Assembly: GCF_000008565.1 (NCBI RefSeq)
Contig: NC_001263.1
Location: 645,776 to 677,775, forward strand
Reading direction: 5' to 3'
Source of the DNA: Deinococcus radiodurans R1 = ATCC 13939 = DSM 20539
Lineage (GTDB): Bacteria > Deinococcota > Deinococci > Deinococcales > Deinococcaceae
DNA: 32,000 bases
Within the stretch, counting starts at the first letter, position 1. Each line of letters starts with the position of its first letter. Of the stretch, positions 3,918-32,000 are shown one piece after another. Below the pieces are notes generated by a model. The model saw only the letters and a list, made by a program, of their open reading frames with translations, was not told the origin of the DNA and did not search any database. Made by a program: the position numbers and the translations under genes.

Positions 3918-4918
<1,001 letters not shown>

Positions 4919-6858: not shown

Positions 6859-6935
<77 letters not shown>

Positions 6936-6949
6936 TTGCACGCAAAATC

Positions 6950-7026
6950 TGGTCGGGAAGACAGGATTCGAACCTGCGACCCCCTGGTCCCAAACCAGGT
7001 GCGCTACCGGCCTGCGCTACTTCCCG
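6950..7026 (-). tRNA. tRNA-Pro (anticodon UGG)
   Basis: Minus strand: CGGGAAGTAGCGCAGGCCGGTAGCGCACCTGGTTTGGGACCAGGGGGTCGCAGGTTCGAATCCTGTCTTCCCGACCA. It is 77 nt, with a perfect anticodon stem CCTGG/CCAGG, loop TTTGGGA and encoded CCA. Confidence 0.92.
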
Positions 7027-25849: not shown

Positions 25850-26230
25850 ATGACTGCACAGATGCAGATTGGCCTCGCTGGACTTCTCAGGCAACACAAC
25901 ATCACCCAGAAGCAACTGGCCCAGGCCGCCCGGATGCGCCCCGCCACGGTGAACGCCATTTACAACGCCCGCATTGAAAGAGTGGAAATCAGGACCCTCG
26001 TTGATCTTGTTGCTGGCCTGCGAAAGCTTGGCATTGAGGCCGATGTAGGCGACATCCTGCAAGTCGTTGATGTCCCCGACCAAGCAGAACAAGCCGCCCG
26101 TGAACGCGCCCTGCGCCTGCTGGGTGGCGAACCGTGGGGGCTGAAACCCGCTGGCCTGAACCCGCCCGTTCCTGTAAAAGGCCCACCCATAGAAGAAATT
26201 CTGAAGGAACACCGGGGGCCGGAACTTTGA
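25850..26230 (+). CDS. XRE-family HTH antitoxin (VapB-position)
   Basis: LLRQHNITQKQLAQAARMRPATVNAIYN helix-turn-helix. RBS GGAGGT. Stop overlaps the start of the PIN gene (TTGA). Confidence 0.7.
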   Translation: MTAQMQIGLAGLLRQHNITQKQLAQAARMRPATVNAIYNARIERVEIRTLVDLVAGLRKLGIEADVGDILQVVDVPDQAEQAARERALRLLGGEPWGLKPAGLNPPVPVKGPPIEEILKEHRGPEL

Positions 26231-26652
26231 CGCTGCTGTATCTGGACACCAGCGCCCTGATTCGCATTTACACCCAGGAACCCGACTATCAGCACGTCAT
26301 TCAGGAGAAACAACAGTCCAGCGGTGTGATCTGCCATGAAATCACTTACGTGGAAGCTCTTGCCGCACTGGCAGGCAGGCGAGCGCGGAGGCTCCTGAGC
26401 GTCAGGCAACACCAACTGGCAGTCACGGCCTTCCAGAACGACTGGCCCACCTTCAGGCACGTTTCTATTGACCAGCAACTCTTGCAGGACGCCGCCGCGC
26501 TCGCGCAGGCACACACTCTGCGGGCCTACGACGCCGTTCATCTGGCCGCCGCGCAAGCTGTCTCTCCACTTGGACTTCAGTTCATGACCTTCGACACGCA
26601 CTTGAGAACTGTGGCCGAGCAGGTGTTACCGGGACAGGTATGGACGCCGTAA
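26227..26652 (+). CDS. vapC: PIN-domain ribonuclease toxin (VapC family)
   Basis: TTG at 26227 in frame ((M)TLLYLDTSALIRIY...). Acidic PIN residues in YLDTS, HEITYVEA, AYDAVHLAAA and FMTFD. Confidence 0.8.
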   Translation: MTLLYLDTSALIRIYTQEPDYQHVIQEKQQSSGVICHEITYVEALAALAGRRARRLLSVRQHQLAVTAFQNDWPTFRHVSIDQQLLQDAAALAQAHTLRAYDAVHLAAAQAVSPLGLQFMTFDTHLRTVAEQVLPGQVWTP

Positions 26653-26660
26653 AAGGAACA

Positions 26661-26718
26661 GGGACGAGCTACCCCGTCCCCCCGCCCCGCTTTTCCCTGC
26701 CAAAGCAGAAGCCTGAGC
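26661..26718 (+). repeat. Cassette-boundary repeat, copy 2
   Basis: Hairpin GGGACG-AGCTACC-CCGTCCC, then core CCGCCCCGCTTTTCCCTGCCAAAGCAGAAGCCTGAGC. Confidence 0.65.
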
Positions 26719-26767
26719 CAGAATTCAATTCTCGTAAGCCAGAACGTATGAATGCTAGTATGAAGGC

Positions 26768-27022
26768 ATGACTTACCAGAACGCCGAACGCATGACCATC
26801 AGCCTGCCGCCCGATATCGCCCGTTACATCAAGGACTACCAGCAAACGCACGGACTGGAAAGCCGCAGCGAAGCCTTCGTGAAAGCCGTTCAAGCCCTCA
26901 GAGAACAGGAACTGGCCGAGCAATACACCGCACTCGCCCGTGAGAACGACCCCGAACGCGCCCTCTTTCTGGAAGGCAACACCGACGGACTGGAACCCAG
27001 CGACGGTAGCGAATGGCTGTAG
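26768..27022 (+). CDS. Ribbon-helix-helix (CopG/MazE-like) antitoxin
   Basis: 84 aa. N-terminal beta-strand-type MTISLPPDIARYIKDY, then an acidic tail. Overlaps the toxin start by 10 nt. Confidence 0.7.
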   Translation: MTYQNAERMTISLPPDIARYIKDYQQTHGLESRSEAFVKAVQALREQELAEQYTALARENDPERALFLEGNTDGLEPSDGSEWL

Positions 27023-27360
27023 GACTCATCCGGCGCGGCGACATTTTTCTGACCCATTTCGGCCCCGCCCGCGCAGGCGAACCGGACTTCAAACGCCCCG
27101 CTGTGGTCATCACCAACAATGTCGCCAACGCCAAAGCGGATGCCGTGACCGTCATTCCGCTCACCAGCAACCTGGAAACCCTCTACGATTTTCAACTGCT
27201 GCTCCCCACCGAGCGAACCGGGCTGAACTTGGACAGCAAAGCGCAGACGGAATTGATCTCGTGTATTGCCATCAGCCGCATCGGGAAGCACCTGGGGCAA
27301 GTGCCAGCCGACCTCATGGCTGAACTGGACGCCAGAATCCGCCTTCACCTTGCCCTGTAA
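27013..27360 (+). CDS. mazF: MazF/PemK family endoribonuclease toxin
   Basis: RRGDIFLTHFGPARAGEPDFKRPAVVITNN...VTVIPLTS...LDSKAQTELISCIAISRI. Canonical PemK/MazF pattern, 115 aa. Confidence 0.88.
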   Translation: MAVGLIRRGDIFLTHFGPARAGEPDFKRPAVVITNNVANAKADAVTVIPLTSNLETLYDFQLLLPTERTGLNLDSKAQTELISCIAISRIGKHLGQVPADLMAELDARIRLHLAL

Positions 27361-27369
27361 ACAGTCGAA

Positions 27370-27435
27370 GGGGACGAGCCACCCCGTCCCCCATTCCCGC
27401 CCCGGAACCGCCCAAGCCAAAGCAGAGGCTTGAGC
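27370..27435 (+). repeat. Cassette-boundary repeat, copy 3
   Basis: Hairpin GGGGACG-AGCCACC-CCGTCCCC, then CCGCCCCGGAACCGCCCAAGCCAAAGCAGAGGCTTGAGC. Confidence 0.65.
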
Positions 27436-27463
27436 TAAACTGTCAACAAGGTAGGAGGACTCA

Positions 27464-27940
27464 TTGCGACTCGGACGACATGGAATACGGGAAGTCATAA
27501 ACTTCTTACAAACATGCAACACTAACGGTAATTTGCCTGATAAGATATTCATTGTTAGCCCATACTATACCCATGCCGCCGGAAATAAGCTTTTGGTCTC
27601 TCTGATTAATAAGGGTGTTAAGGTTTCAGTATTAATACAAAGTGAAGCTTGGGACAATGGAAGCCCGTCGATAAACCAAAAACTAATTATTGATCTAAAC
27701 AATGCTGTCGGCAAAAGCATCGTGAAAAAGTGCGATGATCTTCACGCTAAGATTTTTATCTTCTCGTATCCAGACGGTAGCAGGGAAACTTGGATAGGAT
27801 CATCAAATTTTACATTTAAGGCTGATGGGAAGATTTACTATAATAGTCGCAAAAATATAGAGACAATTGAAAAAATAGTTATTGATTCTCAAATTGAAGC
27901 AGAACTACGTCAAATGTGGAAAAGTGGAGTATTCGTATGA
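27464..27940 (+). CDS. Single-HKD phospholipase D superfamily protein (Nuc-like nuclease candidate)
   Basis: TTG start 5 nt after the GGAGG core of AGGAGGA. HKD motif LHAKIFIFSYPDGSRETWIGSSNFT (His codon 27743-27745, Asn codon 27806-27808). 158 aa. AT-rich codon usage unlike the host. Confidence 0.75.
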   Translation: MRLGRHGIREVINFLQTCNTNGNLPDKIFIVSPYYTHAAGNKLLVSLINKGVKVSVLIQSEAWDNGSPSINQKLIIDLNNAVGKSIVKKCDDLHAKIFIFSYPDGSRETWIGSSNFTFKADGKIYYNSRKNIETIEKIVIDSQIEAELRQMWKSGVFV

Positions 27941-28422
27941 AACGATATTGGGTTGTGCTGGCTAAATATAATATCCACGATTTTCACAATCAAGAATCGA
28001 ATTACATAATTGAATCATTATGGAATACGATAAATTTAGATGAAAAAGTGGAAGGTCATGCCAATTTGGAAATCCATCTTGATAGCAACACCGGAATAGT
28101 AAATGCGGGTTTTATTTTGTATTGCGAAAAAAGTTTAGCGAGAAGGATAACCACTCGCCTAAGTCGATATGTATATTTCCAAGATTATAGGGAGAAGCAG
28201 ATAATAGATACTGAGTACGGCTTATCTAAAGTAAATGCCAACGAGATAATGCTGATTGATCTTCTTAGTTACCTAAAATTTGAATCTTTACAATACTATC
28301 ACTCAGGAAAAGTTGAAATTGAGTTTATTTGGCGAAATTTCGACTTCATTATTGAGAAGGTAATACCAGAATTTGAATTAAACAGGGCAGATCGAGATTC
28401 ACAGGAAGATGAACCTTTCTAA
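27937..28422 (+). CDS. Hypothetical protein coupled to the PLD gene
   Basis: ATG at 27937 overlaps the PLD stop (ATGA). 161 aa (MKRYWVVLAKYNIHDFHNQ...). No motif I recognise. Acidic C-terminus RADRDSQEDEPF. Confidence 0.5.
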   Translation: MKRYWVVLAKYNIHDFHNQESNYIIESLWNTINLDEKVEGHANLEIHLDSNTGIVNAGFILYCEKSLARRITTRLSRYVYFQDYREKQIIDTEYGLSKVNANEIMLIDLLSYLKFESLQYYHSGKVEIEFIWRNFDFIIEKVIPEFELNRADRDSQEDEPF

Positions 28423-29150
28423 ATACCTATATAGAATGAGGAGTATATCTGATTGTCGCAAGCGACTTGCATCATTGAATTAAATTCGTCTGAATATTTT
28501 GCATTCATCTGTCGAATCTGGCAATCCCTTATTTTATCACCCAGAATCGATTTGCCCATAACCAGAAGATACTTTTTGGTTAAAGGAAAATAGAGTTCGG
28601 CGCCATCTTTTCCGATGCCTTGACTCATTGTAAGCGACATTTTACCTGTTCCACAATCTGTTATGCCAGTAATAACAGGAACATCGCTCGTTATATATGG
28701 GGAATCGGAGGGTACTTCGAGAAATTGAAATGTGAAGTTTGACAAGTGGCCTTTTATCTTGGGAAGGCTACTACTAATATTATTATCGAGCATGATTAAA
28801 TGTGTAATTTTGGCAAAATCATCCTGACTCAAGGTTGTACCGGGCTGACCGACTTCCCTTGCTGCCAAATCGAAGGTTTGCTCCCTGATCCTAGGTGTAC
28901 GAAGAAGCTGCAAGCCGACAATTTCAGCAAGCATAGATTTATGATTATGGTTCATAAATCTATGCTTGGCGTCCAAATTTAAGGTCAAATCTCTGATAAA
29001 TCGCGAGTGAATCGCTTCAAAATTATCCGAGATTTGCTTCTCAAGATAATAGGGGTCATCATGCTTTACACCCTTTATATCAACGGTATGGAAATTTCTT
29101 TCCACCGCTATGCCCTCTGGACTGGTCTTAAATGTCTTTTTCCTAGTTTT
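28419..29150 (-). pseudogene. DUF4238 family protein, 3' portion (codons 32-274 of the reconstructed ORF), separated from its 5' end by the IS
   Basis: The frame of track ORF 28419..29105 stays open upstream to the exact IS boundary at 29150 (KTRKKTFKTSPEGIA-VERNFHTVD...). It contains a YITSDVPV motif like the SDNPV motif of DUF4238. Confidence 0.8.
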
Positions 29151-29300
29151 TTGAACCTCACACGACTAAAGTCGCGTGATTCTCACTTCGCAGACCATTG
29201 CCCGCCGAAGCAGGTCTGACATAGCCTCCATGAGCGTTTAAGGTGTCTGAGATTCCCGCAGCCACCAACGCTTCACGCCGAATGTTCAGCGCAGCGTTCT
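29135..29300 (-). ncRNA. TnpB guide RNA (omegaRNA/reRNA): scaffold from the tnpB 3' end and RE, plus ~16-nt read-through guide. The 5' boundary is not determinable from sequence.
   Basis: The minus strand reads ...GTCAGACCTGCTTCGGCGGGCAATGGTCTGCGAAGTGAGAATCACGCGACTTTAGTCGTGTGAGGTTCAA, ending at the IS end (29151). Nested stems are CAGACC/GGTCTG (29191-29218) and TCACACGAC/GTCGCGTGA (29158-29179). The flanking 29150-29135 (AAAACTAGGAAAAAGA) would be the guide. This matches my memory of the published ISDra2 scaffold. Confidence 0.7.
29158..29179 (-). repeat. RE subterminal imperfect palindrome
   Basis: The minus strand reads TCACGCGAC-TTTA-GTCGTGTGA with one mismatch. It is similar to the LE hairpin. 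Confidence 0.7.
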
Positions 29301-30384
29301 CGTCTCGGTCATGGGTTTCCCCACAGTTCGGGCAAGTCCATGTACGGACGGCAAGATTCTTCACTTCGGGATTCTTGAATCCGCAGTCATGACACAACTG
29401 GCTAGATGGAAAGTAGGGGCTGACTTTAGATACCAGTCGCCCGTACCACGCTGCCTTGTATTCCAACTGCCGGATGAACTCACCCCAGCCCGCATCACTG
29501 ATGCTCAGTGCAAGGCGGCGATTTTTCCGCATGTTGTCGGGTTTAAGGTGTTCGGTTCCGATGATTTCGTACTCACGCACCAGGGAGGTGGTGAGCTTGT
29601 GAAGGAAATCCTGACGCTTATTGACAATGCGCTTGTGAATCCGAGCCAGCTTGGTTTTCGCTTTCCCGTAACGTGCGCTGCCCTTCTTCCGTCTGGACAG
29701 GGTTTGCTGAGCTTTACGAAGTCTTTTCAGGGTGGAGCGGTAATATTTCGGATTCTGTTCATGCTTAAACCTCACGCCATCGGTCACGATGGCAAAATCC
29801 TTGATGCCGACATCCACACCCGCTGCAAACTTGGGAGCCGCAGGCAGGTAGGGAATCTCGACTTCACAGAGAACGGACGCTTCGTAATGGCCTTCGTGAA
29901 TACGGCGCACAGTGACATTCAGAATCTTCCCTTGAATATCCTGCTGGCCCTTGGTTTTCACCCATCCCAGCTTAGGAAGTTTGAGCCTACCTTCCCCAAT
30001 TTGGATGTTGTTGTTGGTGAATTGAGTCCGGTAGGACTCTCCCGTGCGCTTCTTTCTGAAACGTGGGAATCCTACCTTTTTACCGGACTGCTTCACAGTC
30101 CGAAAGAAGTTCTTGTACGCGGTCTCAAGGTTTTTCAGCGAGTTCTGCAAAGCAAACTTATCTACTTCCGAGAGCCAGGAGGTTTCTTCAGCCTGCTTCA
30201 GAAGGGTCAGTTCGCTACTCGTTTGCCCGTAGGTCAGTCCCTTCCCGCTTTCCTTGTAGGCCGCAATGCGACGGGCAAGGAAGTGGTTGTAGACGAACCT
30301 TGCGCTACCCAGCGTGCGGTTAATCAGTTCAGTCTGAGCCGCATTTGGGTACAGCCTGACCACGAAAGCCTTATTCCTTATCAT
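29158..30384 (-). CDS. tnpB: TnpB, RNA-guided RuvC-type DNA endonuclease (IS605 OrfB family)
   Basis: 408 aa. [18 protein letters not shown]-terminus. RuvC motifs [17 protein letters not shown] and [11 protein letters not shown]. Zinc finger CHDCG...CPNCG. I recognise the sequence as ISDra2 TnpB. Confidence 0.95.
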
Positions 30385-30793
30385 GCTGGCTCTCTATGTA
30401 TTTCTGAATCTGAGCGCGGGTGTTTTCAGAAACAGTCAGGATGCAATACGACGGGTTCCAGAGATTGCCGCCCCACAGCTTTTCTTTCAACTGCGGGTAG
30501 GCCACGAACATCCGACGTGCGGAAGCGCCTTTCAGCGCCTTCACGAAGTCGGGGATGGCTTGCTGTGGGGTTGCGCTTAGCAGGAGGTGAACGTGGTCAG
30601 GCATGACTTCCATCGTGATGACTTCCAGCCCGTTCTGAGCGGCAATGTCACGCAGGATGTCTTTCAGTCCATCAGCAACCTCACCCACCAACACCTGATG
30701 ACGGTATTTCACGCACCAGATGAGGTGGTATTCAAGCTGATAGACGTAACCCCGGCCTTTCTTCATCTCAAGGGGAAGAATAACATATGTCAT
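30371..30793 (-). CDS. tnpA: IS200/IS605 Y1 (HUH) transposase TnpA
   Basis: 140 aa. HUH motif PDHVHLLL. Catalytic Tyr in the C-terminal helix QKYIESQ (Y132). Confidence 0.93.
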
Positions 30794-30850
30794 CTGGAAA
30801 AGCTAGAGGCTTCCGCTTTTCATCGCCCTTTTCAGGGCGAGAGGGGCTAA

Positions 30851-30870
30851 CTCATGACTGAAGTCACGAG
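30851..30870 (-). repeat. LE subterminal imperfect palindrome
   Basis: The minus strand reads CTCGTGAC-TTCA-GTCATGAG with one mismatch. A second hairpin, TCGCCC-TTTTCA-GGGCGA, lies at 30823-30840. Confidence 0.7.
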
Positions 30871-30886
30871 TGTGCGCCCCTCAAGC

Positions 30887-30978
30887 ATCAAGCACGAACA
30901 GCTTACCATCCGAATCACAGAACTCTCTCAAATAATATTGAGGAACCCAGTGGTGTCTGATTGGTTCATTATTTGCCA

Positions 30979-30979
<1 letters not shown>
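30887..30979 (-). pseudogene. DUF4238 family protein, 5' portion (codons 1-31), ending in the TTGAT insertion site
   Basis: The minus strand translates as MANNEPIRHHWVPQYYLREFCDSDGKLFVLD. HHWVPQYYLREF matches the HYVPQFYLRxF N-terminal signature of DUF4238. The ATG overlaps the carB stop (TAATG). Confidence 0.8.

Positions 30980-32000
<1,021 letters not shown>

Follow-up and report, generated by a model that had tools for sequence, protein, structure and literature searches.

An ISDra2 copy splits a DUF4238 gene of probable anti-phage function between carB and mazEF in Deinococcus radiodurans ATCC BAA-816

Background

In Deinococcus radiodurans ATCC BAA-816, the gene DR_0665 lies beside the insertion sequence genes DR_0666 and DR_0667, and the question is which gene it was before the insertion, how it was broken and what function may have been lost with it. 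Jeong et al. 2024 tabulate DR_0665 with 228 aa in BAA-816 versus 274 aa in ATCC 13939, so the strain difference as such is already known, and the DR_0666/DR_0667 element is among the ISDra2 copies that BAA-816 has and ATCC 13939 lacks. As the target gene of this copy, PMC11276467 gives 'None' and the supplement of PMC11219805 gives 'hypothetical protein'; its identity was previously undiscussed. Other BAA-816 genes split by ISDra2, an alpha/beta-hydrolase (DR_1931/DR_1934) and a serine protease (DR_2322/DR_2325), are likewise interrupted seamlessly and restored in ATCC 13939, and these were treated in the main text of the papers whereas DR_0665 is only a row in a supplementary table.

ISDra2 is 1,736 bp long and its subterminal structures serve as binding sites for the transposase TnpA (Pasternak 2010). 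This enzyme cuts out a single strand in circular form and integrates it into single-stranded DNA 3' of TTGAT (Pasternak 2010, Karvelis 2021). Since TnpA makes no target duplication, the element both enters and leaves a site seamlessly. TnpB, together with an RNA composed of the right end and 16 nt of flanking sequence, cuts TTGAT-flanked donor joints (Karvelis 2021). Considering all the evidence below, we think it likely that the locus holds a null allele, made by ISDra2, of a probable stand-alone anti-phage DUF4238 gene at the slot between carB and mazEF.

Results and discussion

Removal of the insert restores a 274-codon DUF4238 gene

All positions are those of the window, the whole stretch of 32,000 nt of chromosome I of D. 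radiodurans ATCC BAA-816 that was analysed, in which each coordinate equals the genome coordinate minus 645,775; the features are listed in Table 1. On the minus strand, 30979..30887 translates as MANNEPIRHHWVPQYYLREFCDSDGKLFVLD and its last bases are TTGAT (ATCAA at 30887..30891 on the plus strand), and the frame stays open from 29150 downward (KTRKKTFKTSPEGIAVERNFHTVD...) as far as the stop at 28419. In-silico deletion of 29151..30886 (1,736 bp) joins 30979..30887 to 29150..28419 in one ORF of 825 nt or 274 codons, the ATG of which overlaps the stop codon of carB (TAATG) and which is interrupted between codons 31 and 32 (D31|K32). A preliminary description of this DNA had proposed the same repair, with both flanks in one frame, the first piece ending at TTGAT and a single ORF after deletion. 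Translation confirms this, and the repaired gene equals that of IS-free D. radiodurans chromosomes, in which the junction is exactly as predicted: there are 0 mismatches to CP150840.1 and CP031500.1 over the 7,846 bp compared, a 40-mer spanning the junction is found in four independent IS-free loci, and the intact 274-aa protein is recorded, 100% identical, on 321 contigs. Among the IS-free D. radiodurans loci compared, no allele with another junction sequence was found.

The two signatures from which the family had been recognised, HxVPQxYL and TSDxPV, are present as H10-W-V-P-Q-Y-Y-L and T185-S-D-V-P-V, where conservation within the family is highest, and the assignment agrees with the Pfam model PF14022, which the repaired protein matches with 135.1 bits (cut-off 27) over residues 8-269 and profile positions 1-278 of 281. 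Profile positions 1-25 are matched by the N-terminal fragment (27.6 bits) and positions 43-278 by the 228-aa ORF (81.8 bits); the repaired ORF scores more than both together, as expected if they are parts of one interrupted gene. The split is not a chance pattern, and the gene is supported as a DUF4238 gene cleanly split by an IS.

Table 1. Features of the DR_0663 to DR_0668 locus, with window coordinates and the basis of each assignment
Feature	Position	Strand	Basis or remark
mazE-like	26768..27022	+	conserved far border of slot; synteny
mazF	27013..27360	+	PemK_toxin 83.9 bits; far border of slot
DR_0663, single-HKD PLD-family, 158 aa	27464..27940	+	PLDc_2 35.1 bits; RE_NgoFVII 25.9 bits
DR_0664, orphan, 161 aa	27937..28422	+	gene calls; seen only in D. 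radiodurans
GTG ORF, 228 aa, DR_0665/DR_RS03465	28419..29105	-	its GTG is codon V47 of the intact protein
DUF4238 C-terminal 243 codons + stop (K32-I274)	28419..29150	-	translation; IS-free loci
reRNA/omega-RNA, predicted	29135..29285	-	by analogy with Karvelis et al. 2021; extent approximate
ISDra2 (IS200/IS605 family), intact, 1,736 bp, DR_0666/DR_0667	29151..30886	-	length, ends, exact empty site
Right-end subterminal hairpin TCACGCGAC-TTTA-GTCGTGTGA	29158..29179	-	DNA fold of 29140-29240; overlaps tnpB stop codon
tnpB, RNA-guided DNA endonuclease, 408 aa, DR_0666	29158..30384	-	HTH_OrfB_IS605, OrfB_IS605, Cas12f1-like_TNB
tnpA, Y1 (HUH) single-strand transposase, 140 aa, DR_0667	30371..30793	-	Pfam Y1_Tnp 147.6 bits
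Left-end subterminal hairpin ACTCGTGAC-TTCA-GTCATGAGT	30850..30871	-	DNA fold of 30800-30900, z = -4.3
DUF4238 N-terminal 31 codons (M1-D31)	30887..30979	-	translation; Pfam; identical in IS-free loci
carB 3' part, DR_0668	30979..31998	-	CPSase domains; core gene anchoring slot

The insert is a catalogued copy of ISDra2

The insert stands 3' of TTGAT (minus strand 30891..30887) without target duplication, its right end reads ...GGTTCAA and its removal leaves no extra bases. TnpA matches PDB entries 2XM3, 2XMA and 2XO6 over its full length (314 bits); these entries are titled only 'TRANSPOSASE' and we take them to be structures of ISDra2 TnpA. TnpB is identical to PDB 8BF8/8EX9/8EXA at 408 of 408 residues and possesses the catalytic RuvC triad D191/E278/D361. 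With a Y1 transposase, the TnpB triad, the TTGAT target, the length of 1,736 bp, subterminal hairpins and neither target duplication nor terminal inverted repeats, the insert has the features of the element, and compared with ISDra2 (IS8301) of D. radiodurans it is identical in every tested respect, including the overlapping tnpA and tnpB genes. It shows 0 mismatches to three other genomic copies (L089-L093), each preceded by TTGAT, and both the target and the start of the extra DNA at 674926 (29151 in the window) agree with the literature. The insert is thus a member and a catalogued copy of ISDra2 from which nothing differs. By analogy with the structures described by Pasternak 2010, the left-end hairpin is the presumed TnpA binding site.

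A predicted reRNA would consist of some 135 nt from the 3' end of tnpB and the right end, followed by a 16-nt guide taken from the flank, AAAACTAGGAAAAAGA (29150..29135); no Rfam family matches it. For the guide together with a TTGAT TAM, the only match is the intact DUF4238 allele.

The interruption lies between two conserved residues of a single-domain protein

In an alignment of 82 DUF4238 sequences, L17, D187 and P189 are invariant and H10, V12, P13, F20, K32, F51, E68, E76, Q112, R115, S186, P220 and N255 reach 90% conservation or more; all are present in the repaired protein. Its predicted structure is a confident single domain (pLDDT 92.9), in which residues 1-46 contribute the strands E8-10, E27-31 and E36-40. 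The insertion separates the near-invariant N-terminal motif (H10, V12, P13, L17, F20 and D31|K32) and these three strands from the remainder of one compact domain, as expected for a null allele. That the insert is ISDra2, that it splits the DUF4238 gene and that the allele is null we hold, as a joint claim, to be close to certain.

Conserved polar residues (H10, E68, E76, Q112, R115, R120, S186-D187 and N255) suggest that the protein might be an enzyme. A fold comparison with solved structures gave no relative, so any biochemical mechanism is a guess. The predicted model matches, end to end, a protein from phage Smp131, which is P2-like (TM 0.64).

A role in anti-phage defence is probable

The preliminary description had placed DUF4238 among the single-gene anti-phage systems, and this agrees with the literature: in Rousset et al. 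2022 one DUF4238 protein of a P2 hotspot suffices for strong T7 resistance, the name Rst_DUF4238 is in use, and the literature gives no mechanism for it. On that condition, it proposed that the IS has inactivated a defence gene. The inactivation stands, given the split; the defence role is only inferred, for a distant relative of the validated protein that lies in no prophage or satellite.

Like Rst_DUF4238, DR_0665 encodes in its repaired form a single-domain protein at a hotspot where the accessory genes vary, matches the same Pfam domain over its full length, has the N-terminal HxVPQxYL motif and is of similar size (274 aa versus 309 aa in gp11 of phage pro483). The latter also scores 135.1 bits on PF14022, with different matched ranges, an equality that is taken as coincidence. 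As a difference from the known system, the validated type shares only 31% identity with the repaired protein, confined to residues 9-122 (114 residues). On the PADLOC model DUF4238-Pers, which is built on the validated P2-hotspot protein, the match is not full-length: the repaired protein scores 38.8 bits with residues 8-122 against profile positions 6-114 of 309 (109 positions, the N-terminal third only), compared to 725.5 bits over positions 1-309 for the reference type, pro483 gp11. Moreover, pro483 gp11 sits in the gpA-gpQ hotspot and Rst_DUF4238 belongs to prophages of E. coli, whereas DR_0665 lies neither in a P2-like prophage hotspot nor in a phage or satellite but in a chromosomal, 1.85-kb low-GC islet between carB and mazEF of a Deinococcus host with 67% GC. 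No phage or satellite genes were found in this islet.

The islet occupies a position at which other species carry other DNA. In a convenience sample of 34 Deinococcus loci, to which no formal enrichment test was applied, about 20 of the 34 genomes have differing low-GC cassettes directly after carB, the low-GC tract starting at most 600 nt from the carB stop in about 18 loci and slightly further away in 3 more; in many species it starts within the final 1-3 carB codons. An empty state exists as well, with mazEF about 40 nt from carB in two loci (L043 and L042). Between species the cargo is almost all unrelated and consists mostly of recognisable defence genes (NsnABC, PDC-M38AB, AbiTii-TIR, type II RM pairs of REase and MTase, GmrSD-like and Mrr-STAND). 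As in the defence islands of the E. coli pan-genome (PMC10121019) and the P2/P4 hotspots (PMC9122126), a fixed slot flanked by core genes thus takes up unrelated foreign cassettes; as in the core-flanked E. coli hotspots, these are mostly known defence systems and the slot can be empty. Unlike there, the slot is seen at the level of a genus and the junction lies inside the last 1-3 carB codons. Neither an integrase nor flanking repeats were detected at the D. radiodurans carB slot, and no report of a hotspot at this slot was found in the searchable literature. Other cargo is not obviously defensive, such as a 5'-nucleotidase in one locus (L035) and several uncharacterised proteins.

As a core-flanked defence hotspot across the genus, the carB slot independently favours a defence role of the DUF4238 gene, by an argument of guilt by association. 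The relatives of the gene, with no more than 36% identity in the nearest one outside D. radiodurans, adjoin integrases, adjoin GmrSD or sit inside a prophage, and no conserved partner gene stands beside those examined. We incline to the view that the DUF4238 gene has a defence function, and its product would most likely be a stand-alone anti-phage protein.

Alternatively, the gene might be horizontally acquired cargo without a defence function, and the insertion a neutral event of a laboratory lineage with no phenotype. The match to the defence model in the N-terminal third only and the 31% identity over 114 residues would fit this, as would the absence of phage genes nearby, the cargo of the slot that is not all recognisably defensive and the normal laboratory growth of both lineages, each with one DUF4238 paralogue broken. 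We consider it rather unlikely in view of the full-length Pfam match, equal in strength to that of the phage reference protein, the end-to-end match of the modelled fold to a P2-like phage protein, the dominance of bona fide defence systems in the slot of other species and the location of relatives in prophages or beside restriction genes and integrases.

Gain of ISDra2 in BAA-816 or loss in ATCC 13939

Coordinates and gene sizes agree with the published comparison tables of BAA-816 and ATCC 13939, and the intact allele of ATCC 13939 strains is KDR_0665 (WP_081816007.1). Sequence alone fits either a gain of ISDra2 in BAA-816 or a seamless loss in ATCC 13939. In the latter case the ancestral site was filled and TnpA excised the element: excision of IS200/IS605 elements is precise and restores the target, that of ISDra2 occurs at measurable frequency (Pasternak 2010), and both comparison papers call the event a 'loss' or leave its direction open. 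Such a history is nevertheless improbable. It needs six independent seamless losses versus six gains in a lineage, an expansion of ISDra2 from 1 to 21 copies between KR1 and KD8301 and its stimulation by irradiation are documented (Pasternak 2010), all copies are identical in sequence, consistent with a recent burst, and TnpB is proposed to counter loss (Karvelis 2021).

With a gain in BAA-816, a recently transposed intact copy would have entered the DUF4238 gene 3' of TTGAT. The TnpB target at this locus would be the intact allele (TTGAT followed by AAAACTAGGAAAAAGA), and after a cut in the polyploid cell recombination would be expected to restore the IS and keep the gene broken.

A second DUF4238 paralogue, DR_1721, is disrupted by ISDra3 in ATCC 13939 strains. 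A bolder reading, for which we see little likelihood, is that species throughout the genus exchange low-GC defence cassettes at the 3' end of carB, that DR_0665 is a functional, divergent, stand-alone DUF4238 immunity gene at this place and that the losses of the paralogues are not coincidental. If true, each laboratory lineage lost a different paralogue to a different IS (DR_0665 to ISDra2, DR_1721 to ISDra3), which might reflect a cost or incompatibility of two active DUF4238 copies or stress-induced IS bursts that erode AT-rich defence cargo, and homing by TnpB would lock the ISDra2 knock-out into the polyploid cell.

Neighbouring genes and the truncated ORF

Within the same low-GC islet, DR_0663 and DR_0664 are convergent with the DUF4238 gene. 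The start of DR_0664 overlaps the stop of the PLD gene DR_0663 (ATGA), which makes co-translation of the pair probable, and the 3' end of DR_0664 and the DUF4238 stop have an overlap of 4 nt. A family search for DR_0664 returned no family; DR_0663 has weak ZacB and DrmC matches. All three might form one system, acquired together and with one component disabled by the IS: they share a low GC content (0.32-0.43), fill the islet completely and overlap each other, PLD nucleases occur in defence systems, and DR_0663 has the weak matches just named. This, too, is quite unlikely, since the convergent orientation of the DUF4238 gene rules out a common operon, the DUF4238 protein of the phage acts alone (Rousset 2022) and neither a PLD gene nor a DR_0664-like gene adjoins any of the DUF4238 relatives examined; for an orphan such as DR_0664, co-occurrence cannot be shown.

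The DUF4238 gene of BAA-816 most probably being null, it remains to consider the truncated GTG-initiated product that the preliminary description thought might still be made. The 228-aa ORF exists and is annotated; that its product matters is doubtful, as the N-terminal motif (H10, V12, P13, L17, F20 and also K32) and the three leading predicted beta-strands are missing from it. It is very improbable that read-through from tnpB and the reRNA yields a product that keeps or gains activity, making the allele altered instead of null, even though the ORF is open with GAGG 7 nt upstream of its GTG, is listed by RefSeq as a CDS and not a pseudogene, retains its Pfam match and lies downstream of tnpB and the reRNA, which are transcribed towards it across a minus strand that holds no terminator-like site: a PADLOC search of the 228-aa ORF gave no match, and the modelled single compact domain would be unlikely to fold because the six conserved residues and the first three strands are missing.

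Results and discussion

Structure of the split DUF4238 gene

The N-terminal piece of the DUF4238 gene translates as MANNEPIRHHWVPQYYLREFCDSDGKLFVLD and its final five bases are TTGAT, with the insert supplying a stop two codons further on; beyond the insert the DUF4238 frame resumes as KTRKKTFKTSPEGIAVERNFHTVD... and stays open down to its stop. Taking out the 1,736-bp insert in silico yields an 825-nt ORF of 274 codons, and an intact protein of 274 aa that matches it at 100% identity is present on 321 contigs (protein collection, 'DUF4238 domain-containing protein [Deinococcus radiodurans]'). The IS-deleted window shows 0 mismatches over 7,846 bases to the IS-free chromosomes CP150840.1 and CP031500.1, and a 40-mer spanning the predicted junction was found in all four IS-free loci fetched. 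Given this identity with IS-free D. radiodurans loci, the boundaries deduced in the preliminary description are exact, and its proposals that the IS splits a DUF4238 gene and that deleting it restores a 274-codon ORF are both borne out.

Coordinates of the features in the window and in the compared loci
Feature	Window or locus position (strand)	Genome position (PMC11219805 supplement)	Description
tRNA genes	6862..7026 (-)		two, adjacent
HTH gene	25850..26230 (+)		toxin-antitoxin-like pair with PIN gene
PIN gene	26134..26652 (+)		PIN-domain protein
mazE-like gene	26768..27022 (+)		toxin-antitoxin-like pair with mazF
mazF	27013..27360 (+)		
DR_0663		673239-673715	PLD-like, 158 aa
DR_0664		673691-674197	168 aa (RefSeq 161 aa)
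DR_0663 and DR_0664	27464..28422 (+)		gene pair
DR_0665 (DR_RS03465)	28419..29105 (-)	674194-674880	228 aa; RefSeq 'DUF4238 domain-containing protein'
DUF4238, resumed frame	29150..28419 (-)		stop at 28419
Guide of the window ISDra2	29150..29135		TnpB guide, putative
ISDra2	29151..30886		insert
DR_0666		674933-676159	tnpB
DR_0667		676146-676568	tnpA
DUF4238, N-terminal piece	30979..30887 (-)		31 codons
DR_0668		676754-679828	carB
L006 ORF	10248..12233		661 aa
L007 ORF	8695..10680		661 aa
L013 ORF	10347..11411		carB slot, unmatched
L020 ORF	8039..8611		carB slot, unmatched
L022 ORF	8025..9263		carB slot, unmatched
L025 ORF	9085..11530		carB slot, unmatched
L030 ORF	8967..9881		carB slot, unmatched

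Two proteins are encoded by the insert, a Y1 transposase of 140 aa and a TnpB of 408 aa (Pfam). This TnpB is identical at 408/408 positions to the ISDra2 TnpB of PDB entries 8BF8, 8EX9 and 8EXA, with the catalytic residues D191, E278 and D361 all in place, and the TnpA matches 2XM3, 2XMA and 2XO6 over its full length. The insert has the published ISDra2 length, sits 3' of the published target TTGAT without duplication and carries related subterminal hairpins at both ends. Three further genomic copies, of which one is the resident copy, one is inserted in pilT and one is rearranged, each measure 1,736 bp, are preceded by TTGAT and show 0 mismatches to the window copy. The insert is an intact, recently transposed ISDra2. 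No Rfam family matched its reRNA region, and at the gathering threshold Rfam detected nothing in the window besides the two tRNA genes. The GC skew of the window is approximately zero (-0.007) and gives no indication of the replication-strand orientation of the insertion. In one locus (L092; GCA_965136095.1, CBCRWM010000001.1, from position 4235) the resident ISDra2 has its usual left flank and a different right flank, consisting of a SNF2/LAGLIDADG-type 1,154-aa ORF with guide flank GTTTTGTGCCTCGTCG, which suggests that the source strain underwent a rearrangement or deletion next to the IS.

Strain genotype and published comparisons

ISDra2 is among the best-studied transposons. Since, moreover, this IS copy, its position and the 228-aa and 274-aa gene lengths were already known from published strain comparisons, the discovery value of the insertion as such is small. 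The ORFs of the window agree with the BAA-816 gene table (Jeong et al. 2024, supplement; PMC11219805), all being shifted by 645,775; that paper also gives KDR_0665 of ATCC 13939K as 274 aa, a difference of 46 aa from DR_0665, and enters DR_0666/DR_0667 as 'deletion' for that strain. A second comparison (PMC11276467) records 'ISDra2/IS8301, genome-1999, extra DNA starts at 674926', which corresponds to window position 29151, and gives the affected gene for that copy as 'None'. Neither DR_0665 nor any defence link is mentioned in the main text of these two papers, and a literature search found no other main-text mention.

According to the strain-comparison papers, a second DUF4238 paralogue, DR_1721 (334 aa, ~1.747 Mb on chromosome I), is intact in BAA-816 and interrupted by ISDra3 in ATCC 13939 lineages (KDR_1721n; E5E91_08855); the ten ~330-aa cluster representatives checked for DR_1721 included no D. 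radiodurans protein. The two laboratory lineages each carry a different broken DUF4238 gene, disrupted by a different IS, the DR_1721 half of this statement being taken solely from the two papers. These reciprocal knock-outs matter to the choice of strain for phage, transformation or defence work in BAA-816 or ATCC 13939.

Probable gain and proposed retention of the insertion

ISDra2 is moved by TnpA as a single-strand circle that is inserted 3' of TTGAT, and its excision is seamless; seven copies are present in the sequenced strain compared to one in ATCC 13939 (Pasternak et al. 2010). Loss from the other strain would leave no scar, and the sequence by itself is compatible with either direction; gain in BAA-816 is more parsimonious than six seamless losses, and bursts of ISDra2 are documented (Pasternak et al. 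2010). When bound to an RNA of ~150 nt that comprises the right end and ~16 nt of flanking sequence, TnpB cleaves DNA in which TTGAT precedes the guide sequence, and it was proposed that TnpB cuts the donor joint, whereupon recombination restores the element (Karvelis et al. 2021). At the window copy the guide would be AAAACTAGGAAAAAGA; as its sole matching target would be the intact DUF4238 allele, the knock-out should be self-maintaining in a polyploid, recombination-proficient cell. For the transposon-retention model, the intact allele (TTGAT plus the 16-nt flank) would provide a natural ISDra2 TnpB target in the native polyploid host.

Per kb, TTGAT is 5-6 times denser in the low-GC islet between carB and mazEF, which holds the DUF4238 gene, than in host DNA. 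This is a modest per-kb density bias and no rule; a 'low-GC sink' rule for ISDra2 was rejected, because the DNA around the two further independent sites examined is of normal GC (0.64-0.68).

The 228-aa remnant

The 228-aa ORF begins at V47 of the repaired protein, and so is without the most conserved motif of the family and part of the core, and it gave no PADLOC match. With GAGG 7 nt upstream of its start, and tnpB transcribed toward it without any terminator-like site in between, a useless product could still arise. The preliminary description had allowed for a truncated GTG-initiated product; an active form of it is unlikely, and judging from the sequence we consider the IS-split allele a presumptive null. 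RefSeq lists the ORF as a plain CDS, neither pseudogene nor disrupted gene, and the N-terminal piece has no separate entry in the BAA-816 gene tables. The annotation DR_0665/DR_RS03465 is best taken as a disrupted-gene remnant.

Family, conservation and predicted fold

The repaired protein scores 135.1 bits against Pfam DUF4238 (cut-off 27), end to end over profile positions 1-278 of 281, as the initial assignment had predicted; of the fragments, the N-terminal piece reaches 27.6 bits (positions 1-25) and the 228-aa ORF 81.8 bits (positions 43-278). HMMER, run exhaustively against 1.84 billion representatives, returned 1,780 relatives at E <= 0.001, the closest being 36% identical, and DR_0665 is a divergent branch that, at >50% identity, is confined to D. 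radiodurans. An alignment of 82 sequences shows L17, D187 and P189 to be invariant, with at least 90% conservation at H10, V12, P13, F20, K32, F51, E68, E76, Q112, R115, S186, P220 and N255; the IS insertion point is exactly D31|K32. An AlphaFold2 model built from the DUF4238 alignment is, with high confidence, a single compact domain (pLDDT 92.9, pTM 0.90), in which residues 1-46 give the strands E8-10, E27-31 and E36-40 and the helix 14-20. A fold search with this model found no related solved structure, and its sole significant viral match was a protein of the P2-like phage Smp131 (full-length, TM 0.64). PHROGs returned one function-unassigned family, matching the N-terminus only, NCBIfam gave no match and the literature search yielded no mechanistic paper on DUF4238. 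From the conserved His, Glu, Glu, Arg, Arg, Ser-Asp and Asn one may speculate that DUF4238 is an enzyme.

A possible role in defence

The single-gene anti-phage system named in the preliminary description is real: one DUF4238 protein without an assigned function, encoded in the P2 hotspot that lies between gpA and gpQ, confers strong T7 resistance (Rousset et al. 2022). The system, currently named Rst_DUF4238, is without an assigned domain family. Phage pro483 gp11, of the Rst_DUF4238 type and from the same P2-hotspot slot, matches the PADLOC model DUF4238-Pers full-length with 725 bits, whereas the Deinococcus protein reaches 38.8 bits over residues 8-122 only and is 31% identical to gp11 in that same N-terminal stretch only. 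Pfam DUF4238 fits both proteins alike (135.1 bits and an E-value of 4.2e-39 each; range 8-269 in the Deinococcus protein, 7-291 in gp11), an equality that we take as coincidence. On these matches, the Deinococcus protein is a true DUF4238 protein outside the validated Rst_DUF4238 subfamily.

Among the closest DUF4238 relatives with usable contigs, one in a Deinococcus species (L006) adjoins an integrase, one on a metagenome contig (L007) adjoins GmrSD and an integrase, and one (L008) belongs to a prophage, with replication genes on one side and packaging genes on the other. The first two loci also each have a 661-aa protein without Pfam domain, with a tyrosine integrase within a few kb, and may represent a common mobile island type.

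The D. radiodurans islet starts at the stop codon of carB, measures 1.85 kb and has a GC content of 0.32-0.43 compared to ~0.68 for the genome. Its borders show neither direct nor inverted repeats of at least 8 nt, so no att-like site was identified. Besides the DUF4238 gene it holds DR_0663, a small single-HKD PLD-family gene, and DR_0664, which overlap by ATGA and are predicted to be translationally coupled. DR_0664 has no homologues outside D. radiodurans and no family match, and for the pair, which may be a separate two-gene nuclease module, PADLOC gave no more than weak ZacB and DrmC matches. Two toxin-antitoxin-like pairs lie beside the islet in DNA of slightly depressed GC (0.53-0.62 over 25850..27360), both variable in their presence among Deinococcus species.

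The carB 3' region was taken from 80 genomes, and DUF4238, the PLD gene and DR_0664 are each absent from it in all of them (0/80). A low-GC tract starts at most 600 nt from the carB stop in ~18 of the 34 usable Deinococcus loci and a little further off in another three; tracts in ~20 of the 34 span 0.4-3.4 kb at GC 0.35-0.45. Two loci (L043 and L042) have mazEF ~40 nt from carB and represent the empty state, and in many species the compositional break lies in the final 1-3 codons of carB. The cargo is almost all unrelated between species, and a good part of it can be recognised as defence: a complete NsnA/B/C set (455, 357 and 80 bits), PDC-M38A/B, an AbiTii-TIR fusion, methylases paired with BsoBI, CfrBI or REase_II (type II RM), large N6-methylase fusions, GmrSD-like proteins, of which one has a HEPN partner, a Mrr-STAND protein and SMC-like ATPases. 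Several low-GC ORFs of 190-412 aa in L013, L020, L022, L025 and L030 gave no Pfam or PADLOC match and are, by position, candidate undescribed defence genes.

The slot 3' of carB appears to be a compact, variable low-GC defence hotspot across Deinococcus; no report of a Deinococcus defence hotspot was found in the searchable literature. In the window this slot covers 27400..30979 with the IS excluded, and for the other genomes it was read directly past the carB match in loci L009-L046 and L055. This location, guilt by location and not proof, raised our estimate for DR_0665, which we now regard as somewhat more probably defensive than otherwise, and it is the best indirect support for a defensive role of this divergent DUF4238 branch. 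Of the earlier proposal that the IS inactivated a defence gene, the split and the family are right, and the defence part is plausible as something we infer. In this naturally transformable, radiation-resistant genus, the carB slot also offers a cheap place to seek new systems.
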